This document shows, one piece after another, positions 2,742-27,968 of a stretch of 34,385 nt of DNA. The stretch is from a virus (taxonomy: Duplodnaviria; Caudoviricetes). Position numbers and translations under genes: made by a program. A model generated the notes under the pieces. That model worked only from the letters and a program-made list of their open reading frames with translations. It did not search any database and was not told where the DNA came from. The DNA lies in the IMG/VR virus record IMGVR_UViG_3300038379_000354, positions 1-34,385 of that record; one strand, written 5' to 3'. The number at the start of each line of letters is the position of its first letter. The stretch's first letter is position 1.

Positions 2742-4952
2742 ATGCCGGACGATCTGCGCGAGAGCGCCGCCACGATGCACGAGGTGCGCGAGGGTCTCTT
2801 GAAGGCCACCGTCATCGCGGCACGCGAGAAAACGCACGTCGTCCCGTACCAGGACGAGCAGGATTCCCGCTTCGAGGGCGTGGGCGCTATCATCCCGCCC
2901 TACGACCCGACGACGCTTCTGCTCTTGCTCGAGCACTCGAATGCGCTGCGCCAGTGCATCGACGCGTACGTCACGAACATCGACGCCTTCGGCCACACGT
3001 TCGAGCCGATCATCGACGTCGCCGCGGCCGATGCCGACGACCGCCTCGCGAGCTACATCGTCGCGCGCCGAATCGCGCGGATGCCCGAGACCGTGGCCGA
3101 CCCCGCGAAGCAGGTTCCTCAACCCACGGTTGAGGAGCTTGCAGCGGCGAAGCTCGAGCTGGCCGAGCGCATGCGCGCCGAGCGCATGAAGGTGCAGCAC
3201 TTCTTCGACTTCGCGTGCCTCGACTACTCGTTCGTCACGCTTCGCCGGCGCACGCGGCAAGACCTCGAGCTCCTCGGCAACGCCTACTGGGAGGTCCTCC
3301 GCAACGACGGCGGCCAAGTCGCCGGCTTCGAGTACGTCCCTTCGTTCACCGTGCGCCACATGAAAGCCGACACCCACGCGACGTGCGTGTCGATCAAGGT
3401 GAAGGAGAACGAGTTCGACTACGGGGAGATCAAGTCGAAGCGATACTTCCGCCGCTTCGTGCAGATCTTCGAGACGCGCGTGGTGTGGTTCAAGGAATTC
3501 GGAGACCCGCGCTTCATCAGCGCGACGACGGGCGCCGTCTTCAACACGCGCGAGGACTGGGATCGCTACTGCCGCGAGCACAACGGCGCGGACGTCCTCG
3601 CGACCGAGATGATCCACTTCCGCGTGCACACGCCGAAGAGCAGCTACGGCGTGCCCCGCTGGATCGGCACCATCCTTAGCGTGCTCGGCTCGAGGCAGGC
3701 AGAGGAGGTGAACCTCACCTACTTCGAGAACAAGAGCGTGCCCCCCCTCGCCATCCTCGTGCAAGGCGGGAGGATGTCGAACGAATCGATCGATCGCGTG
3801 AAGGACTTCATCGAGAACGAGATCAAGGGGAAGAAAAACTTCCACAAGATTCTTGTGCTGGAGGCCGAGGGGCAAGCGGGCGGCGGCGGCTTCGACCAAG
3901 GCCGCATGAAGATCGACTTGAAGCCGCTCACCGCGGCGCAGCACAACGATGCGCTTTTCCAGAACTACGACGAGCGCAACATCGACAAGGTGGGCCAGGC
4001 CTTCCGCCTTCCGCGAATGCTCCGCGGTGATATCCGCGACTTCAACCGCGCCACTGCCGAGGCGGCTCTCCAGTTCGCGGAGAGTCAGGTCTTCGGCCCC
4101 GAGCGCGACGAGTTCGACTTCACCATCAACCGGAAGATCTTGCCGGTGCTGGGCATCCGGTTCTGGCGGTTCAAGAGCCACACGGTCAGCGCGACGAACC
4201 CGCAGGACCTCACCGCGATGATCGAAAAGCTCTCTGTCGTCGGCGTCCTCACGCCTGCCGAGGGACGCGAGCTCGCGGAGAAGGTCTTCAACCGCGAGCT
4301 GCGGAAGATCAACGAGTCTTGGGTTCGCCAGCCCCTCGAGCTCACGAAGGCCGGTATCGTTCCGCCCGAGGACAAGGACATCAGCGACGCGGCGGCTGCC
4401 GCGCTCACGCCTGGCGCGCCCACGGGGGGCACGCCTCTCGGCGGCGCGGCGATGTCCACGCCGACCGCCCCCGCGGGCGGGGGGGTCGTGCTCACGGGGA
4501 CGGACGCGGCCTCGGTCATCACGGTCAACGAGGCGCGGCAGAGCATGGGCCTCGGGCCGCTTCAGAAGCCCGCGGACAAGGGCGGTGGCGCGGACCCGGA
4601 CGGCTTCCTCACGGTCGCCGAGTTCAAGGCGCTCCGCATGTCGCTCGGCCAGACGCAGGGTGCGGCCGAGGGGCAAGAGGCAGCCGGAGCCACGCCGGTC
4701 GAGAACGCCGACATGACGACCGGCGACCTCGCCTCGGAAGGTGGCCTCGCCATCGGGGGGCAGCGGCGGCGTTTTCGGCGCCAGCCCCCGACCACGAAGA
4801 GCGAGATCTTGTCTCTCGCGGCGGACCTGATGACGCTGCGGAAGACCATGAGCGAGCTCGAGGTGGCGGAGATCGAACGCCAGTTCACCGAAGCGCTCCG
4901 CCAGCAGAAGGCGGCCGAGGACCCCGAGAACGGCGGCCCCATCGAGGGCTAG
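2742..4952 (+). CDS. Portal protein (PBSX/HK97-like) with long C-terminal extension
   Basis: Portal motifs DLELLGNAYWEVLRN, EMIHFR..SYGVPRW, YFENKSVP, AFRLPRMLRG...NRATAE and VLTPAEGRE. Position after the terminase. Confidence 0.92.
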   Translation: MPDDLRESAATMHEVREGLLKATVIAAREKTHVVPYQDEQDSRFEGVGAIIPPYDPTTLLLLLEHSNALRQCIDAYVTNIDAFGHTFEPIIDVAAADADDRLASYIVARRIARMPETVADPAKQVPQPTVEELAAAKLELAERMRAERMKVQHFFDFACLDYSFVTLRRRTRQDLELLGNAYWEVLRNDGGQVAGFEYVPSFTVRHMKADTHATCVSIKVKENEFDYGEIKSKRYFRRFVQIFETRVVWFKEFGDPRFISATTGAVFNTREDWDRYCREHNGADVLATEMIHFRVHTPKSSYGVPRWIGTILSVLGSRQAEEVNLTYFENKSVPPLAILVQGGRMSNESIDRVKDFIENEIKGKKNFHKILVLEAEGQAGGGGFDQGRMKIDLKPLTAAQHNDALFQNYDERNIDKVGQAFRLPRMLRGDIRDFNRATAEAALQFAESQVFGPERDEFDFTINRKILPVLGIRFWRFKSHTVSATNPQDLTAMIEKLSVVGVLTPAEGRELAEKVFNRELRKINESWVRQPLELTKAGIVPPEDKDISDAAAAALTPGAPTGGTPLGGAAMSTPTAPAGGGVVLTGTDAASVITVNEARQSMGLGPLQKPADKGGGADPDGFLTVAEFKALRMSLGQTQGAAEGQEAAGATPVENADMTTGDLASEGGLAIGGQRRRFRRQPPTTKSEILSLAADLMTLRKTMSELEVAEIERQFTEALRQQKAAEDPENGGPIEG

Positions 4953-4953
4953 C

Positions 4954-7900
4954 ATGTTCGCTGCGACCCTCGATTGGTTCATCGAGGACGTCTTCCGGCT
5001 TCCCGTCCAGAAGGCGCTCGATCCGAACGACCCTCACGACTTCGCGATCATCACCGCGCAGCTCGCGAAGGCGACGAAGGGGCTTGCCCAGCCCGAGGAG
5101 GCGAAGGCGTTGAAGCAGGCGCTCGCCATGCTCGACGTCGATTGGAAGAACATGAGCGGCGACGCGAAGGCCAAGGTGGTGCAAGCCGCCAAGGCCGCGG
5201 TCAACCCGGTGAAGACCGTGCTGCCCAAGGTCGAGGACAAGTTCGAGGCTGACGCCGCGAAGCTCGGCATGCAGACGAAGGCGTCGAACAAAAAGACCTT
5301 CGGCTTCGCGATCGGCGTGAGCCTGACGGACGTGCAGCAGAAGTCCCTCCAAGCCATTGCCTTCTCGCAGGGCAACTACGTGCGCGACGAGTACGGGAAG
5401 CGATCAGACGCCTTCGGCTTGAAGGCGAAGCAGATCGTGGCCGAGGAAGTGGCCAAAGGGAGCACGCAGAAAGAGATCTCCAAGAGGCTGAACGTCGAGC
5501 TCACCGCGCAGCAGTTCAACCGCTCGCAGTCCTACTGGGACATCATCGCCGGGGCATTCGCGAATCGCGCAAGGACCTACACGAACCTCTCGTCGTATCA
5601 GGAGGTCGGCATCCAACGCTTTCGCTTCGAGTCGGTGCGCGACCAGCGGACCTCGCAGATCTGCCGCTTCATGCACGGCCGCGAGTTCCCCGTCGAGTCG
5701 GCGTTGAAGGCTTACGCGCGGTCCGAGGCCAAGGGCGGCGACGTGAAAGAGGAGCAGCCGTGGGCCGGTCAGGCGAACGACGCTGACGGCAACCCGGTCA
5801 TCTACGTCAACAGCGGCGGCTCGCGCGTGCCGCTCGCCACGGTAACCGAGTCCGCAGCGGGCAAGGTCGACGAATCGGGGAAGTTCTCGGGTGGCGCCTC
5901 CAACGCGCAGCTCGAGAAGCTCGGAGTGATGACGCCACCGTTGCACGGGCACTGCCGCAGCACGATCGTGCCGGCCGGGACCTCGACGGTGGCGGTGCCC
6001 ACCGCGCCGCCCTTGTTCCAGCTCACGCCCCCCACCGCAGCACCGCCCCCGCCCACGGCTGCCCCACCTCCGCCACCGGCTGCACCGGCTGAGCAGACGG
6101 GCCTTCCCTTTGGCCCTGGCGGGATCTCGAACGTGCCCGCCATGCTCTTCCCCGAGCAGCAAGGCTTCGCGTTCGGTCCTGGCGGGATCTCGATGAAGCC
6201 CATCGCGGTGCCGACGCTCGATCCCGCGGCGCCTCCGGTGAAGGCCTATGTTCCGCTGCATGAGAAAAAGGACGCGGCGCTCGAGAAGCTCGCCGCGCTG
6301 AAGCCGAACGCGAACGGCCTCGTGCCAACGCCGATGACGGTCAAGCAGAACGACAAGTTCGACAAGGCGAAGGACCAGATCGTCGAAGCGTTCGCGGACG
6401 GCTACGGCAAGAAGACGCCGCCGAAGTTCATCTCGGGCATGAAGGCGACGAAAGCCAAGGTCGACCCCGCCAAGGTCGAGGAGTTCATCAAGAACCCCAA
6501 GCTCCTCATCAAAGAGGAGATCCAGCTCGTCAAGATCGGCAAGGAGCTCTACGTCGTGCACGGGCACGAGGCACTCGCTGCGGCGCACTTACTCGACAAG
6601 TGGAAGATGCCCGCGAAGGAGATCAGCCTCAAAGAATTCGAGGCCTTCATGGCAGAGAAGGCGAAGGCCGCTGCCGCGAAGCCCGCTGCGCCGCCCATTC
6701 CGCCGAAGCCTGTCCCTACACCGACACCGTTGCCGCCCCCGCCGCCCACGCCGCTCAAGCAGGCGATCGATCCCGCAGCGATCATGCATGAGAAGACGAA
6801 CCGGCCGGGCGGTGGCTCGAATCAGGGCGCGTTCTATCGGGGCAAGGACGGCGTGGAGCGCTTCGTGAAGCTCTATCAGGACCCCGGCCAAGCGCACGGA
6901 GAAGTCCTCGCCAATTCGCTCTACAAGGCGCTCGGCTTCGAGTCCCCGGAAGCGGTCACGTGGAAGGACGTAAGCGGCAAACAGGGCTACGCGTCCACGC
7001 TCGTCGAGGGCAAGCAGCTCGGCTCGGGCGCGACCAAGGCGCAGGCGCGCGAGTTCTTCAAGGGCTTCGCCGCTGACGTCCTCTCCGCCAACTGGGACGC
7101 CGCGGGGCAGAGCGTCGACAACGCCTTCCTCACGAAGGGCGGGAAGGTCGTCCGTATCGACAACGGCGGTGCGTTCCTCATGCGCGCGCAGGGCGGTCGC
7201 AAGCCTGCCGCTGTCCTCAACTCGGTCAGCGAGCTCGACTACTTCTTCCCAGGCTCGGGCAAGTCGAACCCCGGCTACCACGCGCTCGCGAAGGCTGCCG
7301 GCTACAACTCCGTCGAGGACTTCAAGGACGAGTTCAAAGGGCAGGTCGCGAAGATCTCTCAGGTGCGCCAGCAGTACGGGGGCTGGAGCAACTTCGTCGC
7401 GCAGTATGCGCCAGGCCTCGCCGACCCTGATCGCGCGCAGGTCGTCAAGATGCTCGAGGAGCGCAACCGGCTGCTCGAGAAAAAGGTCGCCGAGCTCTAC
7501 GCGCCCGCGCCGCCCCCGCCTACGCCCGGCAGCATCGAGGGCAAGCGCCTACCGTCGATCAATGGCGCGAAGCCGAGCGACAAGCTACGCCTCGCCGACC
7601 TCCCCGAGACCCCGCGCCCCAAGGACGCGCCCGTTGGAAAGATGCCGTGGGGCGAGGACCGCGCGGCGTACCGCAAGCGTATGGAGGCTTCGCTAGCGAA
7701 GATCTCCGAGACGAACAAGTCCGGTGTCGTCGCGTTCACCGGCAGCTCCTACGGCGCGATTCGCGAGTCCGAGATGCGTGGCACTCCCGACGCGAACGCG
7801 CAGAAGATCAAGCGCGCCTTCCAGCAGGGTACGGCCGAGGCGTGCACCGTCATGCGCGCAATTCAAGTGCCCGAGAGCGTCGCCGAAGGCATGATTCGCA

Positions 7901-8184
7901 ACGGCGGCGTCTTTCGCCTCGGGCAAGGCAACAAGGGGGCGACGGCGTCGACGACTTGGGATCCGGCCGTGGGCATGGAGTGGGCAGGCGGCACGTACGA
8001 TGGCGGCGACGTCAAGATCAAGTTCATGATTCACCAGAAGTCGGGGCTGCCCATCGAGGCGATCTCCCGCTTCCGCCATGAGCACGAGATCCTCCTGCAC
8101 GCCGACGCCGAATTCCGCGTTGTCGGTTCGGCCCGGCTTCAGGGAAAGAAACGGGTCATCATCATCGAGCTCGAGGAGATCTGA
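4954..8184 (+). CDS. MuF (SPP1 gp7-like) minor head protein fused to a ParB-like segment, a HipA/PI-kinase-like domain and a C-terminal ADP-ribosyltransferase
   Basis: MuF motifs D-x-RTSQICRFMHG and PPLHGHCRSTIVP (5935-5973). YVVHGHEALAAA (ParB/Srx-like). Kinase-like GGSNQG, FVK, EVLA, NWD...DN, RIDNGG. ART-like FTGSSY..IR, VMRAI, ASTT, EHEILL. Directly after the portal. Confidence 0.85.
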   Translation: MFAATLDWFIEDVFRLPVQKALDPNDPHDFAIITAQLAKATKGLAQPEEAKALKQALAMLDVDWKNMSGDAKAKVVQAAKAAVNPVKTVLPKVEDKFEADAAKLGMQTKASNKKTFGFAIGVSLTDVQQKSLQAIAFSQGNYVRDEYGKRSDAFGLKAKQIVAEEVAKGSTQKEISKRLNVELTAQQFNRSQSYWDIIAGAFANRARTYTNLSSYQEVGIQRFRFESVRDQRTSQICRFMHGREFPVESALKAYARSEAKGGDVKEEQPWAGQANDADGNPVIYVNSGGSRVPLATVTESAAGKVDESGKFSGGASNAQLEKLGVMTPPLHGHCRSTIVPAGTSTVAVPTAPPLFQLTPPTAAPPPPTAAPPPPPAAPAEQTGLPFGPGGISNVPAMLFPEQQGFAFGPGGISMKPIAVPTLDPAAPPVKAYVPLHEKKDAALEKLAALKPNANGLVPTPMTVKQNDKFDKAKDQIVEAFADGYGKKTPPKFISGMKATKAKVDPAKVEEFIKNPKLLIKEEIQLVKIGKELYVVHGHEALAAAHLLDKWKMPAKEISLKEFEAFMAEKAKAAAAKPAAPPIPPKPVPTPTPLPPPPPTPLKQAIDPAAIMHEKTNRPGGGSNQGAFYRGKDGVERFVKLYQDPGQAHGEVLANSLYKALGFESPEAVTWKDVSGKQGYASTLVEGKQLGSGATKAQAREFFKGFAADVLSANWDAAGQSVDNAFLTKGGKVVRIDNGGAFLMRAQGGRKPAAVLNSVSELDYFFPGSGKSNPGYHALAKAAGYNSVEDFKDEFKGQVAKISQVRQQYGGWSNFVAQYAPGLADPDRAQVVKMLEERNRLLEKKVAELYAPAPPPPTPGSIEGKRLPSINGAKPSDKLRLADLPETPRPKDAPVGKMPWGEDRAAYRKRMEASLAKISETNKSGVVAFTGSSYGAIRESEMRGTPDANAQKIKRAFQQGTAEACTVMRAIQVPESVAEGMIRNGGVFRLGQGNKGATASTTWDPAVGMEWAGGTYDGGDVKIKFMIHQKSGLPIEAISRFRHEHEILLHADAEFRVVGSARLQGKKRVIIIELEEI
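6091..6193 (+). repeat. Imperfect duplication in the MuF linker (EQTGLPFGPGGIS / EQQGFAFGPGGIS)
   Basis: Two copies 63 nt apart sharing cctggcgggatctcga, within a Pro/Ala-rich linker. Confidence 0.75.
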
Positions 8185-8223: not shown

Positions 8224-8682
8224 ATGCCCCGATACCCCGCCAACTATGCCCAGGACCTCGATGCGGAGACGCTGAAGCGCTTGCCGAAGTTCGCCACGTA
8301 CGAGGGCGATGCACCCGATCTGAAACACCTGCGCGGCCTCGTGCTCGAGACCGCGACGGTGGAGCAGCTCGTGTATCCAGGCGAACGCGACAACGTCTTC
8401 GTCGAGGACGAGGACGGCACGCGACACCGTCCGTGGCGCTTCGTGGAGATCGTGGAGCTGGACGCGAATGGGAGCCCGGTCATCCCCCCGGTCGAGCCCA
8501 TTCCCGAGCGTGGGCCGGACGCCATGAGCAGCGGTGACCTCGGCGCCCTCGGAATGACGGACCAGGACCTCATCGACCTCGCGAAAAGCGAGCTGGGAGA
8601 GGTCTACGAGCCTGACCGGCCGGGGCCAAGTGACCTCCGGCGCTCGATCTATAACCGGGTGATGGCAGCGATTCACGGCTAG
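8224..8682 (+). CDS. Acidic hypothetical protein, candidate immunity/partner of the MuF toxin domain
   Basis: 152-aa ORF with AAGGA RBS directly downstream of the MuF-ART gene. Function inferred only from position. Confidence 0.7.
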   Translation: MPRYPANYAQDLDAETLKRLPKFATYEGDAPDLKHLRGLVLETATVEQLVYPGERDNVFVEDEDGTRHRPWRFVEIVELDANGSPVIPPVEPIPERGPDAMSSGDLGALGMTDQDLIDLAKSELGEVYEPDRPGPSDLRRSIYNRVMAAIHG

Positions 8683-8713: not shown

Positions 8714-9055
8714 TTGCCTCGTGTGGAACCTGGCGTGTTCGCTTCCCTCGTAACCGAGGACAAGGTCGGGAAGGTCGCTCTCGGAATCGAGGCGGCCGTC
8801 GCTCAGTCGTTCATCGATGATATGCAGCCGGGGCGAGTCATCATCGTCCACGGCGGCAATCGCATCACGCAGGCCGAGATCAAGCGGCGCGGCGAGATGT
8901 GCATCAAGATCTTCCGCATGCTTCGGGGCGACCTGAAGTGGACGATCGAGCGGATTCTCGACCACCTCCCGCAGTATCTCCGCAAGGAGCTCGACGGCCT
9001 TACGTGGGAGCCGGAGGCGCGCCGCGCTTCCTGGTACGGACCCGCTCGTCCTTGA
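8714..9055 (+). CDS. Hypothetical protein
   Basis: 113-aa ORF (TTG start, uncertain) with typical codon usage and an amphipathic helical C-half. Confidence 0.6.
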   Translation: MPRVEPGVFASLVTEDKVGKVALGIEAAVAQSFIDDMQPGRVIIVHGGNRITQAEIKRRGEMCIKIFRMLRGDLKWTIERILDHLPQYLRKELDGLTWEPEARRASWYGPARP

Positions 9056-9841: not shown

Positions 9842-12043
9842 GTGCGCCGAAAGGTTGCCAAGCAGCAAGCAGTGACCCTGCTCGACATGCCGCTCGCGAA
9901 GGGGCGTGTCGCGAAGTCGGCGCTCGTCTTTCACGATGGCCTCGCGGTCCTTCGCCTGAAGAACCTCGAGCAGCCGATCTCTTGGAAGCTCCACCTCGCG
10001 CGTGACCCGCGGACCCCCGCGGCCGATCTCGCGAAGAGCTTCTCGGCGTTCGGCTCTCGTCACGTGCACGCCTTCAAGGACGTCCCCGCTGAGTTCAGCC
10101 CGCCGATGGCAGACCTCGCGGCAGGACCCTCACCTGCGATCGACGGCGTGACGGAGTTCGGCCTCCAGACCGAGGACGACCACGAATACTTCATGTCGAA
10201 GTTCGGCGATCTCGTTGGCATCGTGCGCATCACGCGTAAGGCTGGCGGGTGGTCGGCGAATCTCTCGAAGACCCTCGTGCCGCGTGTCCTCACGGACGAG
10301 GCGGTGAAGAAGGGCCTCATGCCTCCGCCCGGCCATTCGGGTCTCCCGAAGTCGCTCGAGGCGGTCGTGCCGGCCGAGTATCGCTACTGGCAGGCCAGCG
10401 GCGAACAGGCCATCGCTATGCGTGACGCGCTCGTCGAGAGCGGCTTCTTCTCCGAGGATACGATCAAAGCGGTCGACGGTGAGCTCCGCAAGGTGGAAGT
10501 TCGCTACTACCTCTACGAAACGCAGGGCGACGTCGGCAAGTCGATCAAGCGGCTTCCCACCCTCGCCGATCGCGTGGCGAAGGTCGTTCCCGAGGCCCTC
10601 ATGGGTCAGGGCTTCGCGCCGATGGCAGAGGATGACTGGCTCGAGGCGCTCGACAAGAACGACGCGCCGGGGAACCTCGCGATCCTTTCGCCTCCCGACC
10701 GCACCACGAACCCGCGCGAGATGGCGCGTGCGGCAGCCACGCTGAAGGGCGACTTCCTCCTCGAGCACGAGGACACCAAGCAGGCGCGCGCCGCGTTCTC
10801 TCGCGTCGGGCAGCTCTTCAAGCTGGCCGGCGAGCCCACGCGGATCTTCTGCGCGTCGTTCCCCCCGGTCGGCGCGGCCTGGCTCGGCAAGGCCGCCGAT
10901 GGCGCGGTGAAGAAGGTCGTCGACTTCCAGGGGATCAAGGTCTCGATCGATCGTCCCATGGGCTTCGTGCAGACCGGCAAGGACGCTGAAGGCAACGAGT
11001 GGTCGCGCACGTACCACAACGACTACGGCTTCCTCCCGCGGACGAACGGCGGTGATGGCGGAAGCCTCGACGTGTTCATGGGGCCGAGCGAGAAGAGCGA
11101 TCGCGTGTTCTGGGTCGAGCAGCGCAAGGCCGATGGGACCTTCGACGAGTTCAAGATCTTCCTCGGCTTCGATGCGCCGGGCGAGGTCCTCGACGTCTTC
11201 AAGGCGCACATCCCCGTGCGCTTCTTCGGTGGCCTCTCGGAGATGACTGTCGCGCAGATGAAGGCCTTGCTCAACCTCGACTTCGGCGAGGTACAGAAGG
11301 CGGTGCGCGCAGCGGTCGTCAAGATCGCCGGCGTCTCCTACGAGCAGCTCCGTTCTGCCATCAACGCGGCGCTGACCGAGGCGTTCCCACCCGAGGGTGA
11401 CAACGCGTGCAGCCCTTGCGGCTACTACTGCGAGGACATCTTCGACGACAAGGCGATCTTCTACAAGGAAGGCAAGACGTACGCGATCGGCTACACGTAC
11501 CAGAACGGCGCGGTCACGCTTTCGGGTGAGCCTGTCCCCGTCGTTCGCGACTGGAAGCCGGCTTCTGAGCTCGGCGGCGCCTCGCCCCTCGCGATGGCCG
11601 CGCCGAAGAAGAAGCCGGTCGCGTGTGCCGACAAGGCAGTCTTCGACGAGCTCGAGAAGCGGTCCGTCAAGCTGGCGCGCGCCACGGTGCAGAAGGACCA
11701 GCGCTACGTCCTAGGTATCGTGCTCGAGCCGGACATCGTCGACGCGCAGAATGACACCTACTCGGCCGAGGAGATTCGCGGCGCCTTCGAGAAGTTCGCG
11801 GAGCAGTATCGGAACGTCGGCCTGATGCACAAGCAGGTCATCAACGACCGCGTCGCGATCGTCGAGAATTACATCGCGCCGGCCGACTTCCAGATGGGCG
11901 ATACGACCATCAAGAAGGGCACGTGGTTGATGGGGGTGCGGGTCAACGATCCCGACCTCTGGTCGGCCTGCAAAGACGGCTCCATCACGGGGTTCTCGAT
12001 CGGCGGGTCGGCCATCCGTAAGCCGGTATCGCAAGGGGTTTGA
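9842..12043 (+). CDS. Multidomain prohead protease (XkdF-type C-terminal domain) with inorganic-pyrophosphatase-like and decayed Dam-methylase-like domains
   Basis: GTG start after GAGGTAGGA. C-terminal RYVLGIVLEPD..DAQND..SAEEI...GLMH...ENYIAP...KGTWLMG...GFSIGG is XkdF-like. Central SIDRPMG...DYGFLPRTNGGDGGSLDVFMG...FDEFKIFLGF is InPase-like. Confidence 0.85.
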   Translation: MRRKVAKQQAVTLLDMPLAKGRVAKSALVFHDGLAVLRLKNLEQPISWKLHLARDPRTPAADLAKSFSAFGSRHVHAFKDVPAEFSPPMADLAAGPSPAIDGVTEFGLQTEDDHEYFMSKFGDLVGIVRITRKAGGWSANLSKTLVPRVLTDEAVKKGLMPPPGHSGLPKSLEAVVPAEYRYWQASGEQAIAMRDALVESGFFSEDTIKAVDGELRKVEVRYYLYETQGDVGKSIKRLPTLADRVAKVVPEALMGQGFAPMAEDDWLEALDKNDAPGNLAILSPPDRTTNPREMARAAATLKGDFLLEHEDTKQARAAFSRVGQLFKLAGEPTRIFCASFPPVGAAWLGKAADGAVKKVVDFQGIKVSIDRPMGFVQTGKDAEGNEWSRTYHNDYGFLPRTNGGDGGSLDVFMGPSEKSDRVFWVEQRKADGTFDEFKIFLGFDAPGEVLDVFKAHIPVRFFGGLSEMTVAQMKALLNLDFGEVQKAVRAAVVKIAGVSYEQLRSAINAALTEAFPPEGDNACSPCGYYCEDIFDDKAIFYKEGKTYAIGYTYQNGAVTLSGEPVPVVRDWKPASELGGASPLAMAAPKKKPVACADKAVFDELEKRSVKLARATVQKDQRYVLGIVLEPDIVDAQNDTYSAEEIRGAFEKFAEQYRNVGLMHKQVINDRVAIVENYIAPADFQMGDTTIKKGTWLMGVRVNDPDLWSACKDGSITGFSIGGSAIRKPVSQGV

Positions 12044-13134: not shown

Positions 13135-14088
13135 ATGAGCCTCGCCGGACAGATCACCGACAACCGAACCGTTCTCGAGAAGGCCGACCTTGCGCTGAGC
13201 GACCTGACGTCCTCTGGAGGTCTCCTCCAGCCGGCGCAGGCTGCCAAGTTCATGCGCATCCTCATCAAGCAGTCGAAGTTGATGGGGATGAGCACGGTCG
13301 TCCCGATGAAGAGCCACAAGCAGCTCATCGAGAAGATCCGCTTCGCCGGCCGCGTGCTGCGCGCTGGCAACGAGGCGCAGGCGCTCGCCGCGGGTGACCG
13401 CGCGAAGCCGAACCTCGGCAAGGTGGAGCTCGATGCGCAGCTCTTCAAGGCGGAAGTCCGCCTCAACAACGAGGTCCTCGAAGACTCGATCGAGCGGGCG
13501 GAGCTCCGCCAGACGATCATGCAGATCCTCGGGGATGCCATCGCGCGCGACATGGAGGAAGTCTCGATCCAGGGCGACACCGCCTCGGCCGATCCCTTCC
13601 TCGCGAAGTTCGATGGTCTGCTCAAGCAGATCACGTCGAACGTCGTCGACGCGGCGGACACGAAGCTCTCGAAGGTCCACTTCCGCGACATGCTGCGGGC
13701 ACTCCCCTCGGAGTTCCTCCGCAACAAGTCGGAGATGCGGTTCCTCACGAGCGTCGACGCCGAGATCGACTACCGCGACACGCTCGCGGATCGAGTCGGG
13801 CCGGTCGGCGACCGCTTCCTCGAGCAAGACGCCGCGGTGCAGTACAGCGGCGTTCCCGTCGTGGACCTCCAGCTCATGCCGGAGAACATTGGCACGGGCT
13901 CGCACTGCACGAACGTGGTCTTCACCGACCCGAAGAACATCAACTTCGGCGTGTGGCGTCAGATCCGCATCGAGACGGACAAGCTCGTTTCGGAAGGCGT
14001 CCTCATCATCGTCGCCACCCTGCGCTTCGACATGAAGCTCGCGGAGGAGACGGCCACGGTGAAGACCATCAACGTCAACGTCGCCTGA
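13135..14088 (+). CDS. Major capsid protein (HK97 fold, XkdG-like)
   Basis: [21 protein letters not shown]-arm motif, [20 protein letters not shown]...[22 protein letters not shown]. 317 aa, after the scaffold. Confidence 0.92.
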
Positions 14089-20139: not shown

Positions 20140-20624
20140 GCCAGCTCGCCACTTACCGCGTCGCCGCTTCGCTCGCGGGCGCCGCCAACAAGGTCATGCT
20201 CGCGGTGCTCAACCCTGCCGGGTCGGGCAAGATCATCAGGGTCAAGCGGTTCAGTATCTTCGTTCCCTCTTCTTCGGGTACTGAGGTCGTCGTGCATTGG
20301 GAAGCGCGCATGGCGACCGCGTTCTCGGGCGGGACCGCAGCGACGCCGACGAAGGCCGACTCCGCCGACGCTGCCTCCGCTGCTACGTGCCTCACGGGGG
20401 CGACGACCATCACGCCGACCGATCCCGCGCAGCCGCTCGTTGAAGACGTGGTGGTGCAGATCAACACCTTTCAAAGTCCTGACAGCTATCGGTTCGACCT
20501 CGCGAAGAGCGCGGACGAGAAGCCGGTCGTTCTTCGCGCGGGGGAAGGCTTCTACCTGAAGCAGATCGAAAGCAACACGTCGACACACAAGGTCGGGATC
20601 GTCTACACCGAAGAGGCACCATGA
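20136..20624 (+). CDS. Putative virion structural protein
   Basis: AGGAGG RBS, ATGA overlap, 162 aa beta-rich, PVVLRAGEG motif. Confidence 0.7.
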   Translation: MSQLATYRVAASLAGAANKVMLAVLNPAGSGKIIRVKRFSIFVPSSSGTEVVVHWEARMATAFSGGTAATPTKADSADAASAATCLTGATTITPTDPAQPLVEDVVVQINTFQSPDSYRFDLAKSADEKPVVLRAGEGFYLKQIESNTSTHKVGIVYTEEAP

Positions 20625-21535
20625 ATCGCGTATCGTTTCTACTCATCGCCCTCCTGGCGTTCTTCACCGCGTGCGCTGCGGGCAGCGGGGCCAAGCCCGA
20701 GCCGGCGAGCGAGACCACGCTCCGCTACACGACGGCTTGCAAGACATGCTCGAACGTGACGCCGCAGCAGAAGGTGATCCTCGTCCACGGACGCGGCGAC
20801 AGCCCCGCGCGATGGGACACGCTTGTCACGAATTGGTCGAGCAAGGGCTTCACGGAGAACGTGAACCTCTTCCGCATCGACCTCGCGGCTTACTGCACCT
20901 CGAACACGTTCTGCGCCATGCTCCCCGCCCCCGATGGGACGGGTGCGACCTACGTGAACGAGAGCTACGCCAAGTGCCTCAAGCGCTACGTCGACGAGAA
21001 GGTTCCGTGCGACTCGGACGCCGGCACGTGCCCAGCCGTCGACATCGTCACGCACTCGCAGGGCGGCATCGTCGCGCGGTACTACGCGCGCTTCCTCGCG
21101 GCGCCCCGGCAGGTGAACGACCTTGTCGTGATGGCCGCGCCGAACAACGGGATCACCAACTGCACGCTTGCCGGGTCGTGTCAGGGTGTGAACCCCGAGG
21201 ACTGCCCGGACTCCGCCTTCATGCGCAAGCTGAACGGCGTATCCCCGCAAGGGGACGGAACGAACGATGAGACGCCGGGGGCGAGCCAGCTTGGGCCTGT
21301 CCACTACGACGCGATCCTCTCCACCGGAGACAAGACGGTTGTGCCGTGGTGTACGGCCTACTTCATCCTGAACCCGCAGACGCAACAGGGCGACGATCTG
21401 TCTTGCTCCGGCGCGGGGAACTACACGCTCGACACCGAGGCGGACTCCTGCAAGCTGTCGAACATCCAGCACCTCGTCGTCCCGACGAATGCGACGGCCA
21501 TCAACCACGCCTACTGCCAGGTGACGGCGGACTGA
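20621..21535 (+). CDS. Cys-rich lipoprotein alpha/beta-hydrolase (lipase/esterase family)
   Basis: Signal peptide with lipobox-like FTAC (Cys18). VILVHG oxyanion motif, VDIVTHSQGG nucleophile elbow, AAPNNG, DETPG, GDKTV (Asp), IQHL (His). Confidence 0.85.
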   Translation: MNRVSFLLIALLAFFTACAAGSGAKPEPASETTLRYTTACKTCSNVTPQQKVILVHGRGDSPARWDTLVTNWSSKGFTENVNLFRIDLAAYCTSNTFCAMLPAPDGTGATYVNESYAKCLKRYVDEKVPCDSDAGTCPAVDIVTHSQGGIVARYYARFLAAPRQVNDLVVMAAPNNGITNCTLAGSCQGVNPEDCPDSAFMRKLNGVSPQGDGTNDETPGASQLGPVHYDAILSTGDKTVVPWCTAYFILNPQTQQGDDLSCSGAGNYTLDTEADSCKLSNIQHLVVPTNATAINHAYCQVTAD

Positions 21536-25721: not shown

Positions 25722-27968
25722 ATGAGCTCGCAACTTCTGGCATCGAAGATCGTCATCGTCGAGGAGGAGCCGAAGGTCCGCACGATTGCGGGCGTCACGA
25801 CGGCTACCACTGGCTTCCTCGGCATCACCGAGAAGGGGCCGGTCGGCGTCGCAACGCTGGTCAACAGCGTCGACGAGTATGACTCGATCTTCGGCGGCTA
25901 CACCGCCAACGGCGATGTCAGGCAGGCGATCGACGGGTTCTTCCAGAACGGCGGCACGACGGCTTACGTCGTGCGGACGACGCACTACACGGACGTCACC
26001 GACCCGAGCACGAAGACGAGCGCGAAGGCCTCGGTCACGCTCCAGACGGGCGCGGTGGCCGCGTACGGCGGAAGCGTCACTGGCACCGCGACGGCGCCCT
26101 TCAACCTCGAGCCTGGCGACACTCTCGTCGTCGACCACGACGCGATCTCGCCGACGACGGCGACCTTCAACGCGACCGCGGCGGCTCGAGAGAACACGCC
26201 GGCCGAAACGTACGCGCTGGTCAACGCCTACACCCTCACGGTCAAGGTCGACCAGGGCAGCCCGCAGACCATCGCCTTCCTCACCTCCGAGTTCGTGTCG
26301 ATCGGCGCGGCCACGGCGGAAGAGGTCGCAGCGGTCATCAACGCCAAGATCGTTGGCGCGAAGGCCTCGGTCACATCGGCGGGCACGAAGGTCACGATCA
26401 CGAGCGACCGGCGCGGCACCGGCAGCTACATCGAGGTCACGGGCGGCACCGGCAACGGCGTGCTCGGCTTCAACGTCGCGGAGGTGCAGGGCACCGGCAA
26501 CGTCTCGAACATCGACGCGGTCACGGTGGCCGAGGTCAAGACGATCGTGGAAGCCGCGGTCTCCGGCGTCACGGTCACGGACGTCAGCGGTAAGGTCAAG
26601 ATCCAGCGCAACACCACCGGGCCGACCGCAACGGTTCAGGTGGACGCCTCGAGCACGGCAGACGACGAGCTCGGCTTCGACAACGCGGTGCATGCAGGCT
26701 CGACAGGCGCGGCGGTCAACACGCTTCGCCTGGACGGGAAGTACGACGGCACCTACGCCCATATCCTGAAGGGCAAGGTCGAGAACGCGACGAGCGGCAA
26801 CGCCGCCGAGTTCAACCTCGTCGTCCTGAAGAACGGAATCATCATCGAGACGTTCCCGAACGTCACAATGGATGATGCCGCGACGAACTACGTGGAGACG
26901 GTCGTGAACCACGCGACGACCGGCTCGAAGTACGTCGCTGCGGTCGACCTCGACGCGGGCACGGGCGCCGCCTCGACGGACCGCCCCATCAACGTGACGA
27001 CCTCCTTCCTCTCGGGCGGCAACGACGGCCTCACGTCCCTCGCCGACACCGACTTCACGGGGGCCTCGAGCTCGAGCGGGAAGACGGGCATTCGCGCGTT
27101 CGATCTCGTGCAGGACCTCAACCTCCTCACGATCCCCGGCCGCGCGACCTCTGCGGTGCAGAACGCGATGATCACCTACTGCGAGGTGACCCGCGACATG
27201 AGCATGTTCGCGATTCTCGACCCGCCCGCGGGGCAGAGCGCCGAGCAGATCATCACCTACTTCGAGACGACCGCGGCCCTGCTCGGCATCTCGGAGTTCG
27301 GCGCGGCCTACTGGCCGCGTATCAAGGTCCTCAACCCGAATAAGACGGTGTTCGGCAACGAGGACCAGATCACCGTCCCGCCCTCGGGTCACATCGCCGG
27401 CGTCTACGCCCGCACCGACGCGAGCAAGGACGGCGGCGTCTACGAGTACCCTGCGGGTGTCGAGAACGGCATCCTCTTCGGGTGCCTCGGGTTCGAGACC
27501 AACGAGGTGCTCGAGGAGGCGAAGCGCGACCTCGTCTACCCGAAGCGCATCAACCCGCTGACGGTCCTGCCGGGTTCGGCGCGCCACATCGACGGCACGC
27601 GCACGCTGAAGGGCGGAGGCAACTTCCCCTACATCGCGGAGCGGCGCGGCGCGATCTTCATCGAGCAGTCGGTCAAGAACGGCCTCCAGTTCGCGCGGCA
27701 GAAGAAGAACACCGAGGAGCTCCGTCAGACGGTCAGCCGCACGGTGGAAGCATTCCTCTTGGCGCAGATGCGCAACGGCGCCTTCCGCACCAACGACCCG
27801 GCGACCGCCTTCTACGTCGACTTCGGCGAGGGGCTAAACCCGGCATCGGTGCAGTTCGCCGGCCAGCTCATCGGCCGCATCGGCATCGCTACAGCGAAGC
27901 CTGCGGAGTACATCATCTTGCGATTCTCGCAGGACACGCGCGCACTCGAAGAGGAGCTCGCGGCCTGA
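25722..27968 (+). CDS. Contractile tail sheath protein
   Basis: [77 protein letters not shown]. Confidence 0.95.

Follow-up and report, generated by a model that had tools for sequence, protein, structure and literature searches.

Why should a phage head protein of the MuF type carry two unrelated modifying enzymes at its C-terminus? The question is raised by a gene at positions 4954..8184 (+ strand) of IMGVR_UViG_3300038379_000354, a viral sequence (Caudoviricetes) of 34,385 nucleotides (nt) that was analyzed over its full length and is referred to here as the window. The gene is one open frame of 1076 amino acids (aa) in which a MuF head domain is followed by a ParB-like domain, a kinase-fold domain and an ADP-ribosyltransferase (ART). 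An earlier note, made from the sequence without database searches, proposed that the virion delivers both enzymes on one chain at injection, either for host takeover or for anti-defence. Our analysis favors a capsid-loaded two-enzyme effector whose ART would be held off by an inhibitor in the producing cell: this is the best reading we can give of the locus and, in our judgment, somewhat better than an even bet. Papers are cited by accession.

Domains of the MuF protein

The MuF / SPP1 gp7-like head domain occupies 4954..5976 (+; residues 1-341). It is recognized by TIGR01641 (58.3 bits; cut-off 39.65) and by phrog_13868 (E 1e-66 across residues 6-339); PF04233 gives E 3e-6 at 28.3 bits, slightly below its cut-off of 29.6. 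The core ends at residue 340 (about nt 5973), close to where the earlier note had placed it, and the three modules that follow are, as was also described there, set apart by Pro-rich linkers (all +): 5977..6240 (Pro at 25 of 88 residues), 6670..6774 (16 of 35) and 7504..7650 (13 of 49). The catalytic motifs that had been quoted were likewise all located on the translated frame, at nt 6868 (K639), 6901 (E650), 7096 (D715), 7120 (N723) and 7159 (D736) in the kinase segment and at nt 7855 (R968), 7948 (S999), 8080 (E1043) and 8086 (E1045) in the ART. An assembly chimera was considered and rejected: the order MuF-ParB-kinase-ART recurs in 26 of 183 fetched proteins (the window protein included) and MuF-kinase-ART in 21 more. 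In addition, an independent viral contig holds a 100% identical kinase segment within an open reading frame (ORF) of the same length and architecture.

Folds were modeled with AlphaFold2 from alignments of 27 sequences (residues 605-1076) and 16 sequences (residues 430-572), and the models were compared to 48,161 solved chains. Residues 605-1076, spanning kinase and ART, were modeled with a predicted local distance difference test score (pLDDT) of 92.7 and a predicted template modeling score (pTM) of 0.58. The fold comparisons bear out both of the enzyme folds that had been read from the motifs.

The kinase domain lies at 6766..7518 (+; residues 605-855). Its model (residues 1-249 of the model) best matches CtkA (Z 17.1, root-mean-square deviation (rmsd) 3.2, 208 aligned), with further matches to PI4KII-alpha (Z 14.2, 215 aligned), CotH (14.1), MavQ (13.2), Fam20 (13.0), HipA (11.7) and actin-fragmin kinase (11.4). 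In the model it shares with these proteins the bilobed fold and the Lys, Glu, catalytic Asp, Asn and metal-binding Asp that are found together in atypical kinases of the PI3K/PI4K/HipA/CtkA-like kind, and about six C-lobe helices are kept past the D-N-G motif. However, identity to these proteins is 12-16%, and the catalytic loop differs. Canonical kinases have four residues between the catalytic Asp and the Asn, and the loop of HipA and of the PI3/PI4-kinases reads D-x4-N with a His; that of the window kinase is D-x7-N, with seven residues separating Asp from Asn in 227 of 257 domains, and there is no His. Nor do the Pfam HipA and PI3/PI4-kinase families match the window kinase at E up to 0.1 (weak HipA_C matches occur in some relatives): by profile and by loop it falls outside both families in the strict sense. 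A DPV motif and a shut-off domain characterize the T7 kinase gp0.7 (T7K), which is synthesized once the phage DNA has entered; the window kinase differs in carrying D-N-G-G at 736-739, in sitting on a head protein and in having no PHROGs match, and it lies outside that family also. That the kinase acts on proteins is a prediction: in the fold comparison PI4K, MavQ, CotH and Fam20 all stand at Z 13-14 behind CtkA.

The kinase segment has no credible match in Pfam, NCBIfam, PHROGs or PADLOC, and a weak Diphtheria_C match (E 0.03, below the cut-off) was rejected as chance, given the kinase fold. Searches of PDB sequences with the full protein, or with a kinase-only family profile of 25 sequences, returned no kinase at E below 1; the relationship is visible by fold only. 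The family is large, with 3,864 clusters (50% identity) at E up to 0.001 and 1,641 at E up to 1e-10, and, since the window copy is without a profile match in four libraries, it is invisible in annotations. The best 150 of the 3,864 representatives were retrieved, and conservation was counted in a set of 257 unique domains, each 150 aa or longer. The core residues are kept almost throughout (K639 and E650 in 249 each, D715 and N723 in 256 each, D736 in 255), as are residues specific to the family: D708, N713 and R734 in all 257, G718 in 256, K750 in 254, E760 in 251 and R744 in 248. Such conservation suggests an enzyme under selection.

Two further forms of the kinase were seen. Kinases of about 250-290 aa stand alone in 17 loci. 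In many of them the kinase is preceded by a short leader in which Lys/Arg, Glu and hydrophobic residues abound and which resembles the capsid-targeting leaders of T4-like internal proteins. Distant homologues lie in Melainabacteria/Gastranaerophilales and other gut bins (14 loci), and in six metagenome loci they are found inside proteins of 1500-2400 aa, in which the ART profiles found no ART.

The ART lies at 7636..8181 (+; residues 895-1076). The best match of its model (residues 266-472 of the model) is Vis (Z 15.5, rmsd 3.6, 179 aligned), and C3bot2, HopU1, Certhrax and VIP2 match as well; C3-type enzymes were picked up, too, when the PDB was searched with an ART family profile. The predicted fold, R968, an S-T-S-like strand (which reads S999-T-T in the window) and the motif E1043-x-E1045 place it in the R-S-E clade (Alt/VIP2/Vis type). 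None of the 27 aligned sequences departs from R968, S999, E1043 or E1045. A broader set comprises 195 proteins with an ART stretch of more than 110 aa behind the kinase, taken from 292 single-kinase proteins: at a mean identity of 22%, these kinase-linked ARTs keep the Arg in all 195, the Ser in 186, and the first and the second Glu in 194 each, with the ExE motif kept in 194. ExE points to arginine as the acceptor of ADP-ribose, and the motif thus suggests that the ART modifies arginine, although it may instead act as an NADase or in RNAylation.

The remaining module, at 6241..6669 (+; residues 430-572; pLDDT 91.9), had been described as ParB/Srx-like, which holds for its fold and fails for its catalytic site. 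The top nine rows of the fold search are all chains of the ParB/Srx superfamily, and a Foldseek search gives E 5.8e-4; the match to sulfiredoxin is middling (Z 8.5, rmsd 3.2, 80 aligned), and SerK (a serine kinase), PadC, KorB and other ParB chains are matched too. The motif G-H-E-A puts A540 at what we take, from the motif G-x-x-R, to be the arginine position of the superfamily, and in 36 relatives Ala is the commonest residue there (17), with Arg outside the five commonest. In the ParB/sulfiredoxin superfamily this is a conserved active-site arginine (PMC5512222). The best-kept columns of the domain are mostly structural Ala, Leu and Val, plus one Lys and one Gly; the domain is basic (isoelectric point (pI) 9.4) and is missing from many relatives. 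It is probably degenerate and not an enzyme, and we infer a non-catalytic, possibly nucleic-acid-binding, spacer.

The gene behind the ART

Intact catalytic residues and predicted folds support the idea of two modifying enzymes on one MuF chain. What the earlier note overlooked is the adjoining gene: an ORF at 8224..8682 (+), which starts 40 nt past the stop of the MuF-kinase-ART gene and encodes an acidic protein of 152 aa (pI 4.5). The protein has no credible match in Pfam, NCBIfam, PHROGs or PADLOC, and no usable atlas match. A profile of its family was built from 10 downstream ORFs and searched among all locus ORFs. There are 17 distinct matches, none of them more than 221 nt away from where a kinase-ART ORF ends. 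Ten are the seeds; of the other 7, five come from new loci, one is an additional match in locus L114, and one is a copy of the window gene that is truncated. The family was found in none of 35 short-MuF loci with room downstream and in none of 50 ART-less kinase loci.

The predicted complex of the kinase-ART segment with the 152-aa protein scored 0.82, against 0.17 for the best of three controls. The mark applied to this score is reached by 116 of 157 solved pairs and by 2 of 215 mismatched pairs, counts that are only roughly valid with our own alignments. At least 82% of contacts are common to the runs, and the partner has a pLDDT of 85 or higher. Confident contacts involve 53 residues of the large chain, every one of them in the ART, among them R968, S999 and H1042; no confident contact of the partner with the kinase domain was predicted, which says nothing on other inhibitors. 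Solved ART-immunity pairs exist (6drh, 8za7), and the score could have passed by likeness to these, though the partner belongs to no known family. The prediction supports the view that the 152-aa protein is an active-site inhibitor of the ART. Because the gene is linked to the cargo, and because its product is predicted to bind the active-site face of the ART, the locus appears to be organized as a MuF toxin-immunity pair.

The next gene, at 8714..9055 (+; 113 aa), has no match in Pfam, PHROGs or NCBIfam. It was considered as a kinase inhibitor and rejected: 19 of its 30 matches come from loci in which MuF bears no scored cargo domain. Occurring in loci with or without cargo, it is probably a core head-module protein. 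As short-MuF loci have this gene too, the cargo and the small gene look to have been inserted together, with 8714..9055 marking the right-hand edge. GC content, overall and at third codon positions (GC3), gives no mark of recent cargo acquisition.

The arrangement resembles the MuF polymorphic toxins that Jamet et al. (2017) describe in temperate phages, where a small ORF comes after 89.4% of the toxins and 14% of 191 MuF toxins are putative ARTs (PMC5576092). The likeness extends to a MuF domain (MuF1) directly after the portal gene, a variable C-terminal cargo and a small downstream ORF. In the window the MuF domain is N-terminal with the portal gene directly upstream, tails on this MuF vary (short in 39 of 53 loci, kinase-ART, HEExH or other), and the downstream ORF, which at 152 aa is slightly above the 150-aa line of that paper, is linked to the cargo and is a predicted ART binder. 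Unlike those toxins, the window chain joins two apparently intact enzymes and a seemingly dead ParB-like domain; the word "kinase" appears 0 times in the main text of PMC5576092. A second likeness is to Bxa of a Bacteroides stercoris prophage, an antibacterial MuF-ART that is promiscuous on Arg and is countered by the immunity proteins Bsi and BAH (PMC11699363). Both systems have an N-terminal MuF, a C-terminal Arg-type ART, a place in a head-morphogenesis region and a small adjoining gene whose product blocks, or in the window is predicted to block, the active site, 8224..8682 being likened to Bsi by description. Bxa differs in having no kinase domain in its description, as far as the available text goes (PMC11699363), and in the presence of an ADP-ribosylhydrolase gene; none was detected among the 33 window ORFs scanned.

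Since the adjoining gene, with a product predicted to bind the catalytic face of the ART, gives a toxin-immunity arrangement, a plain toxin role competes with host takeover. According to this alternative the locus would be a strict MuF polymorphic toxin: the ART would arrest growth after delivery to, or release against, non-immune cells, and lysogens would be protected by 8224..8682. The benefit would go to the lysogen or to the phage in competition with others, and the kinase would be a second toxin or a helper rather than a tool of takeover. Gene order and predicted active-site binding fit this view, as do the polymorphic tails on the same MuF, the faster divergence of the ART than of the kinase (mean identity 22% vs 43%), and the precedents of Bxa and of MuF toxins in temperate phages. 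An inhibitor, however, would also be needed simply because a structural gene is strongly expressed late in infection; the window, moreover, holds structural genes only and gives no reading of lifestyle, and a single short pattern finds at least 23 loci among 185,579 species genomes (nearly all of these loci in entries titled metagenome-assembled or uncultured), compared to 97 in viral contigs. A strict toxin is on this evidence possible, but we think it rather unlikely.

Carriers, relatives and genomic setting

Kinase and ART are frequent companions. Among 321 unique kinase proteins (all fetched proteins and loci), 205 contain an ART and 39 a NUDIX domain. Where at least 150 residues lie behind the kinase, an ART is present there in 201 of 257 proteins, whereas an ART precedes the first kinase in 6; the median gap from kinase to ART is 56 residues. 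The carrier of the pair varies. This MuF clade is the carrier in 54 of 195, and on the kinase tree the carrier changes 12 times, compared to at least 42 times in 100 shuffles. Portal, inorganic pyrophosphatase (InPase), NUDIX and Acb1 fusions also carry both enzymes, and topoisomerase IB and SNF2 fusions are among the carriers of the kinase. The pair behaves like a single mobile cassette that different virion carriers have taken up.

Single arrangements illustrate the range: a protein of 3416 aa repeats kinase-ART five times (P0069), others read Acb1-NUDIX-kinase-ART (P0160), portal-InPase-kinase-ART (P0173) or topoisomerase IB-NUDIX-kinase (P0103 and L020), and in locus L074 (5638-8508) ART, kinase and ART are three separate adjacent genes, an unfused form.

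As a control, a search was made with MuF alone. It gave 54 loci, of which 53 were scored after leaving out a copy of the window genome. No extension of more than 20 aa follows MuF in 39 of the 53 (4 of the 39 are cut by the locus end), and 14 have an extension; the kinase is present in 3 loci (one truncated), and an ART solely in the 2 complete kinase-bearing ORFs. Five further long proteins of this MuF clade end in an HEExH peptidase-like tail, with neither kinase nor ART. In L201 (2445-5786) and L215 (5806-9156) the same MuF and ParB-like domains are joined to about 700 aa of other cargo.

Similarity among the ARTs follows the kinase: ART clusters track the kinase tree, with 42 changes compared to at least 114 when shuffled. 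An ART-only homologue search returned 3 proteins, all kinase-bearing, a number from which no base rate can be taken. No other enzyme is carried as often as an ART by proteins of this kind (PMC5512222, PMC9503650). Common ancestry and base rate account for some of the pairing, because the sample is enriched for near relatives, because the ARTs track the tree and because ARTs are the commonest cargo.

It could also be that the two enzymes serve one coupled reaction, the kinase acting on a substrate or product of the ART (for example an ADP-ribose adduct, free ADP-ribose or NAD-related nucleotides), or priming or switching the ART, instead of having host-protein targets of its own. The fixed order of kinase then ART (201 vs 6), with its 56-residue median gap, speaks for this, and the fivefold repeat in P0069 and the three adjoining genes of L074 are consistent with it; so is NUDIX, which is fused in the 39 proteins mentioned above and encoded two genes downstream in cultured phages. 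The near-invariant basic residues R744 and K750, just past D-N-G, would suit a phosphate-bearing substrate. Yet with ARTs the commonest cargo enzyme the base rate of co-occurrence is high (PMC5512222, PMC9503650), about one-third of the kinases have no detected ART, and the tracking of the kinase tree by ART clusters fits shared descent equally: we regard coupling as improbable. A two-step writer seems to us a similarly long shot. Here the virion kinase would phosphorylate the ADP-ribose adduct, or the same targets as the ART, and the compound mark would resist host ADP-ribosylhydrolases, both enzymes arriving on the entering DNA before phage gene expression.

Virion chains with several unrelated enzymes have been described before, as polyvalent proteins and as head-packaged ARTs of the Alt/VIP2 kind (PMC5512222, PMC9503650). 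The window chain, with two or more unrelated conflict domains on one virion-linked protein, conforms to this description, and MuF-Alt/VIP2 fusions and NUDIX, InPase, ParB-like, 2H-type and peptidase companions are common to both (PMC5512222, PMC9503650). The enzymes themselves differ. The polyvalent-protein kinase of Iyer 2017 has lost its whole C-terminal subdomain and has a conserved His-insert-Asp, whereas the window kinase keeps a helical C-lobe and has no conserved His; the polyvalent-protein ART is of the H-Y-D type, whereas that of the window is R-S-E, a clade excluded from genuine polyvalent proteins (PMC5512222).

The pair is also present in cultured phages. Twenty GenBank phage records, from phages of E. 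coli, Yersinia, Pseudomonas, Enterobacter and Morganella, match the kinase, and the homologues are annotated "ADP-ribosyltransferase" or "hypothetical". Six cultured-phage proteins were examined. Four have kinase then ART (gp129 of Yersinia phage fHe-Yen8-01, gp117 of Pseudomonas phage Dolphis, gene 47 of E. coli phage ECML-606-1 and ORF50 of Morganella phage Mecenats66), one has just a weak ART match, before the kinase, and the MuF profile matched none of the six. In the ECML-606-1 protein the kinase lies at 1680-1902 and the ART at 2069-2236. Directly behind each of the four kinase-ART genes is an acidic ORF of about 160 aa (pI 4.3-4.9), and a NUDIX gene comes next in the 3 cultured phages scanned or annotated there. 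The conserved cluster in these loci (L085, L086, L243 and L244) combines a large kinase-ART protein with an acidic one of 160 aa and, where scanned or annotated, a NUDIX gene. A GenBank note calls fHe-Yen8-01 gp129, which is without this MuF, a "phage particle associated protein" (we found no publication that reports how this was established); in this phage the kinase-ART protein, the acidic protein and the NUDIX gene are all annotated as particle-associated.

The window is a head-and-tail operon of a contractile-tailed phage, with terminase, portal, MuF gene, protease, capsid, sheath, tube, tape measure and baseplate, and the genes identified by Pfam/PHROGs scans are structural only. The terminase (524-2131) is followed by the portal protein gene at 2742..4952 (+; PF04860 E 1.7e-20; phrog_12 E 1e-41), directly upstream of the MuF gene, which starts 2 nt past the portal stop; the portal is the presumed docking partner of MuF. 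Beyond the genes already described lie a head protease (9842-12043, +), the major capsid protein (13135-14088) and the sheath (25722-27968). The prohead protease is of the PF14550 XkdF type (residues 616-724) and shares its chain with an inorganic pyrophosphatase domain (PF18823, residues 357-477). A head protein thereby carries a second enzyme here as well; the domain order is reversed in three relatives. An alpha/beta hydrolase (lipase or thioesterase-like) is encoded at 20621-21535 (+), between tail-fibre-like genes and the head-tail adaptor. Several close relatives of the phage are on contigs of about 100 kb. A close cultured relative was not found, the best identity of the major capsid protein being 39.5% and MuF giving one weak match. 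The best match among the 185,579 species genomes is a 7-kb contig in a Polyangiaceae bin, a weak host hint only.

A proposed capsid-loaded effector

The reading we favor, a capsid-loaded two-enzyme effector with a producer-side inhibitor of the ART, builds on gene order, domain order, modeled folds and intact catalytic residues, and draws support from the position of the gene between portal and head protease in an all-structural operon. Late in infection MuF would bind portal and DNA, and a few copies would be loaded per capsid, as suggested by SPP1 gp7, the precedent for MuF loading at the portal (PMC6316719). The acidic 152-aa protein is predicted to cover the NAD-binding face of the ART, like Bsi on Bxa, and would be left behind or shed; it would keep the ART off in the cell in which virions are built. 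The payload would then be released into the host with the DNA. After entry the ART, probably not a very selective enzyme, would use NAD+ to ADP-ribosylate arginines, and hydroxyl groups on host proteins would be phosphorylated by the kinase; both modifications would add negative charge.

The basic MuF and the dead ParB-like domain would keep the enzymes on the incoming DNA, and with such tethering nucleic-acid-binding proteins (restriction and other defence proteins, RNA polymerase) would be hit first, just as the DNA-binding part of T7K steers that kinase to nucleic-acid-binding defence proteins (PMC13645617). Despite the family differences noted above, T7 kinase gp0.7 / JSS1_004 is alike in being a phage kinase joined to a DNA-binding part, and it offers a functional model for anti-defence phosphorylation (PMC13645617). 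Virion delivery is argued by analogy with SPP1 gp7 (PMC6316719) and from the GenBank note that gp129 is particle-associated; that MuF cargo is delivered at all is still treated as hypothetical (PMC5576092, PMC11699363).

A number of observations weigh against the favored reading. Packaging, injection, activity and substrates of the MuF-kinase-ART protein are predictions. The low joint confidence of the two-domain model (pTM 0.58) gives no sign of a fixed interface between kinase and ART. The atypical D-x7-N loop weakens any assignment of a substrate class, and even of protein-kinase activity, and the lipid kinases PI4KII (Z 14.2) and MavQ (Z 13.2) stand level with the protein kinases CotH and Fam20, all behind CtkA. 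The pair is not obligate: 116 of the 321 kinase proteins are without an ART by the profiles used, 33 of the 321 do not exceed 330 aa (contig ends truncate some of these), and GodonK gp67, encoded next after the portal gene of that cultured phage, is a kinase with no ART detected. The kinase sample was gathered by similarity to the window kinase and is thus enriched for near relatives and lacks phylogenetic independence. The same kinase-linked proteins served to build the ART profiles, which biases the ART counts toward high conservation. Finally, of 73 de-duplicated ART-bearing loci with enough sequence downstream, the inhibitor family was seen in 8: although specific, it is by no means universal, or else its other members have diverged too far to be detected.

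The kinase might instead phosphorylate lipids or small molecules, at the membrane or the cell wall while the DNA enters, with no connection to the ART. PI4KII-alpha (215 aligned) and MavQ are among the best fold matches, and an atlas PI3_PI4_kinase cluster is listed (at 0.91, on 12% of its members). This reading is highly improbable, given that the hosts of phages with a homologue (E. coli, Yersinia, Pseudomonas, Enterobacter and Morganella) are not normally known to contain phosphatidylinositol, and that CtkA, the best match, is a protein kinase.

MuF-ART fusions, and multi-enzyme virion proteins with kinases of another type, are already in print. The kinase family, its pairing with an R-S-E ART and the inhibitor family were not found described in the literature, though the supplements of PMC5512222 and PMC9503650 may list the architecture; by term look-up, neither this kinase family nor a virion protein that pairs kinase and ART is described in the available portions of PMC5512222, PMC9503650, PMC3482391, PMC5576092, PMC7824862, PMC7302621, PMC9503643, PMC12226406, PMC13645617 and bioRxiv 2025.01.14.632903. 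ARTs packaged in heads have been reported before, as have MuF toxins, whereas a kinase riding in the virion was not found described in the papers searched; T7 kinase has recently been shown to disarm many defences (PMC13645617). The pairing of kinase and ART, together with the predicted inhibitor, bears on the question of what MuF cargo does at infection, and, as gene 47 of E. coli phage ECML-606-1 has the same kinase-ART pair, the question is approachable there.

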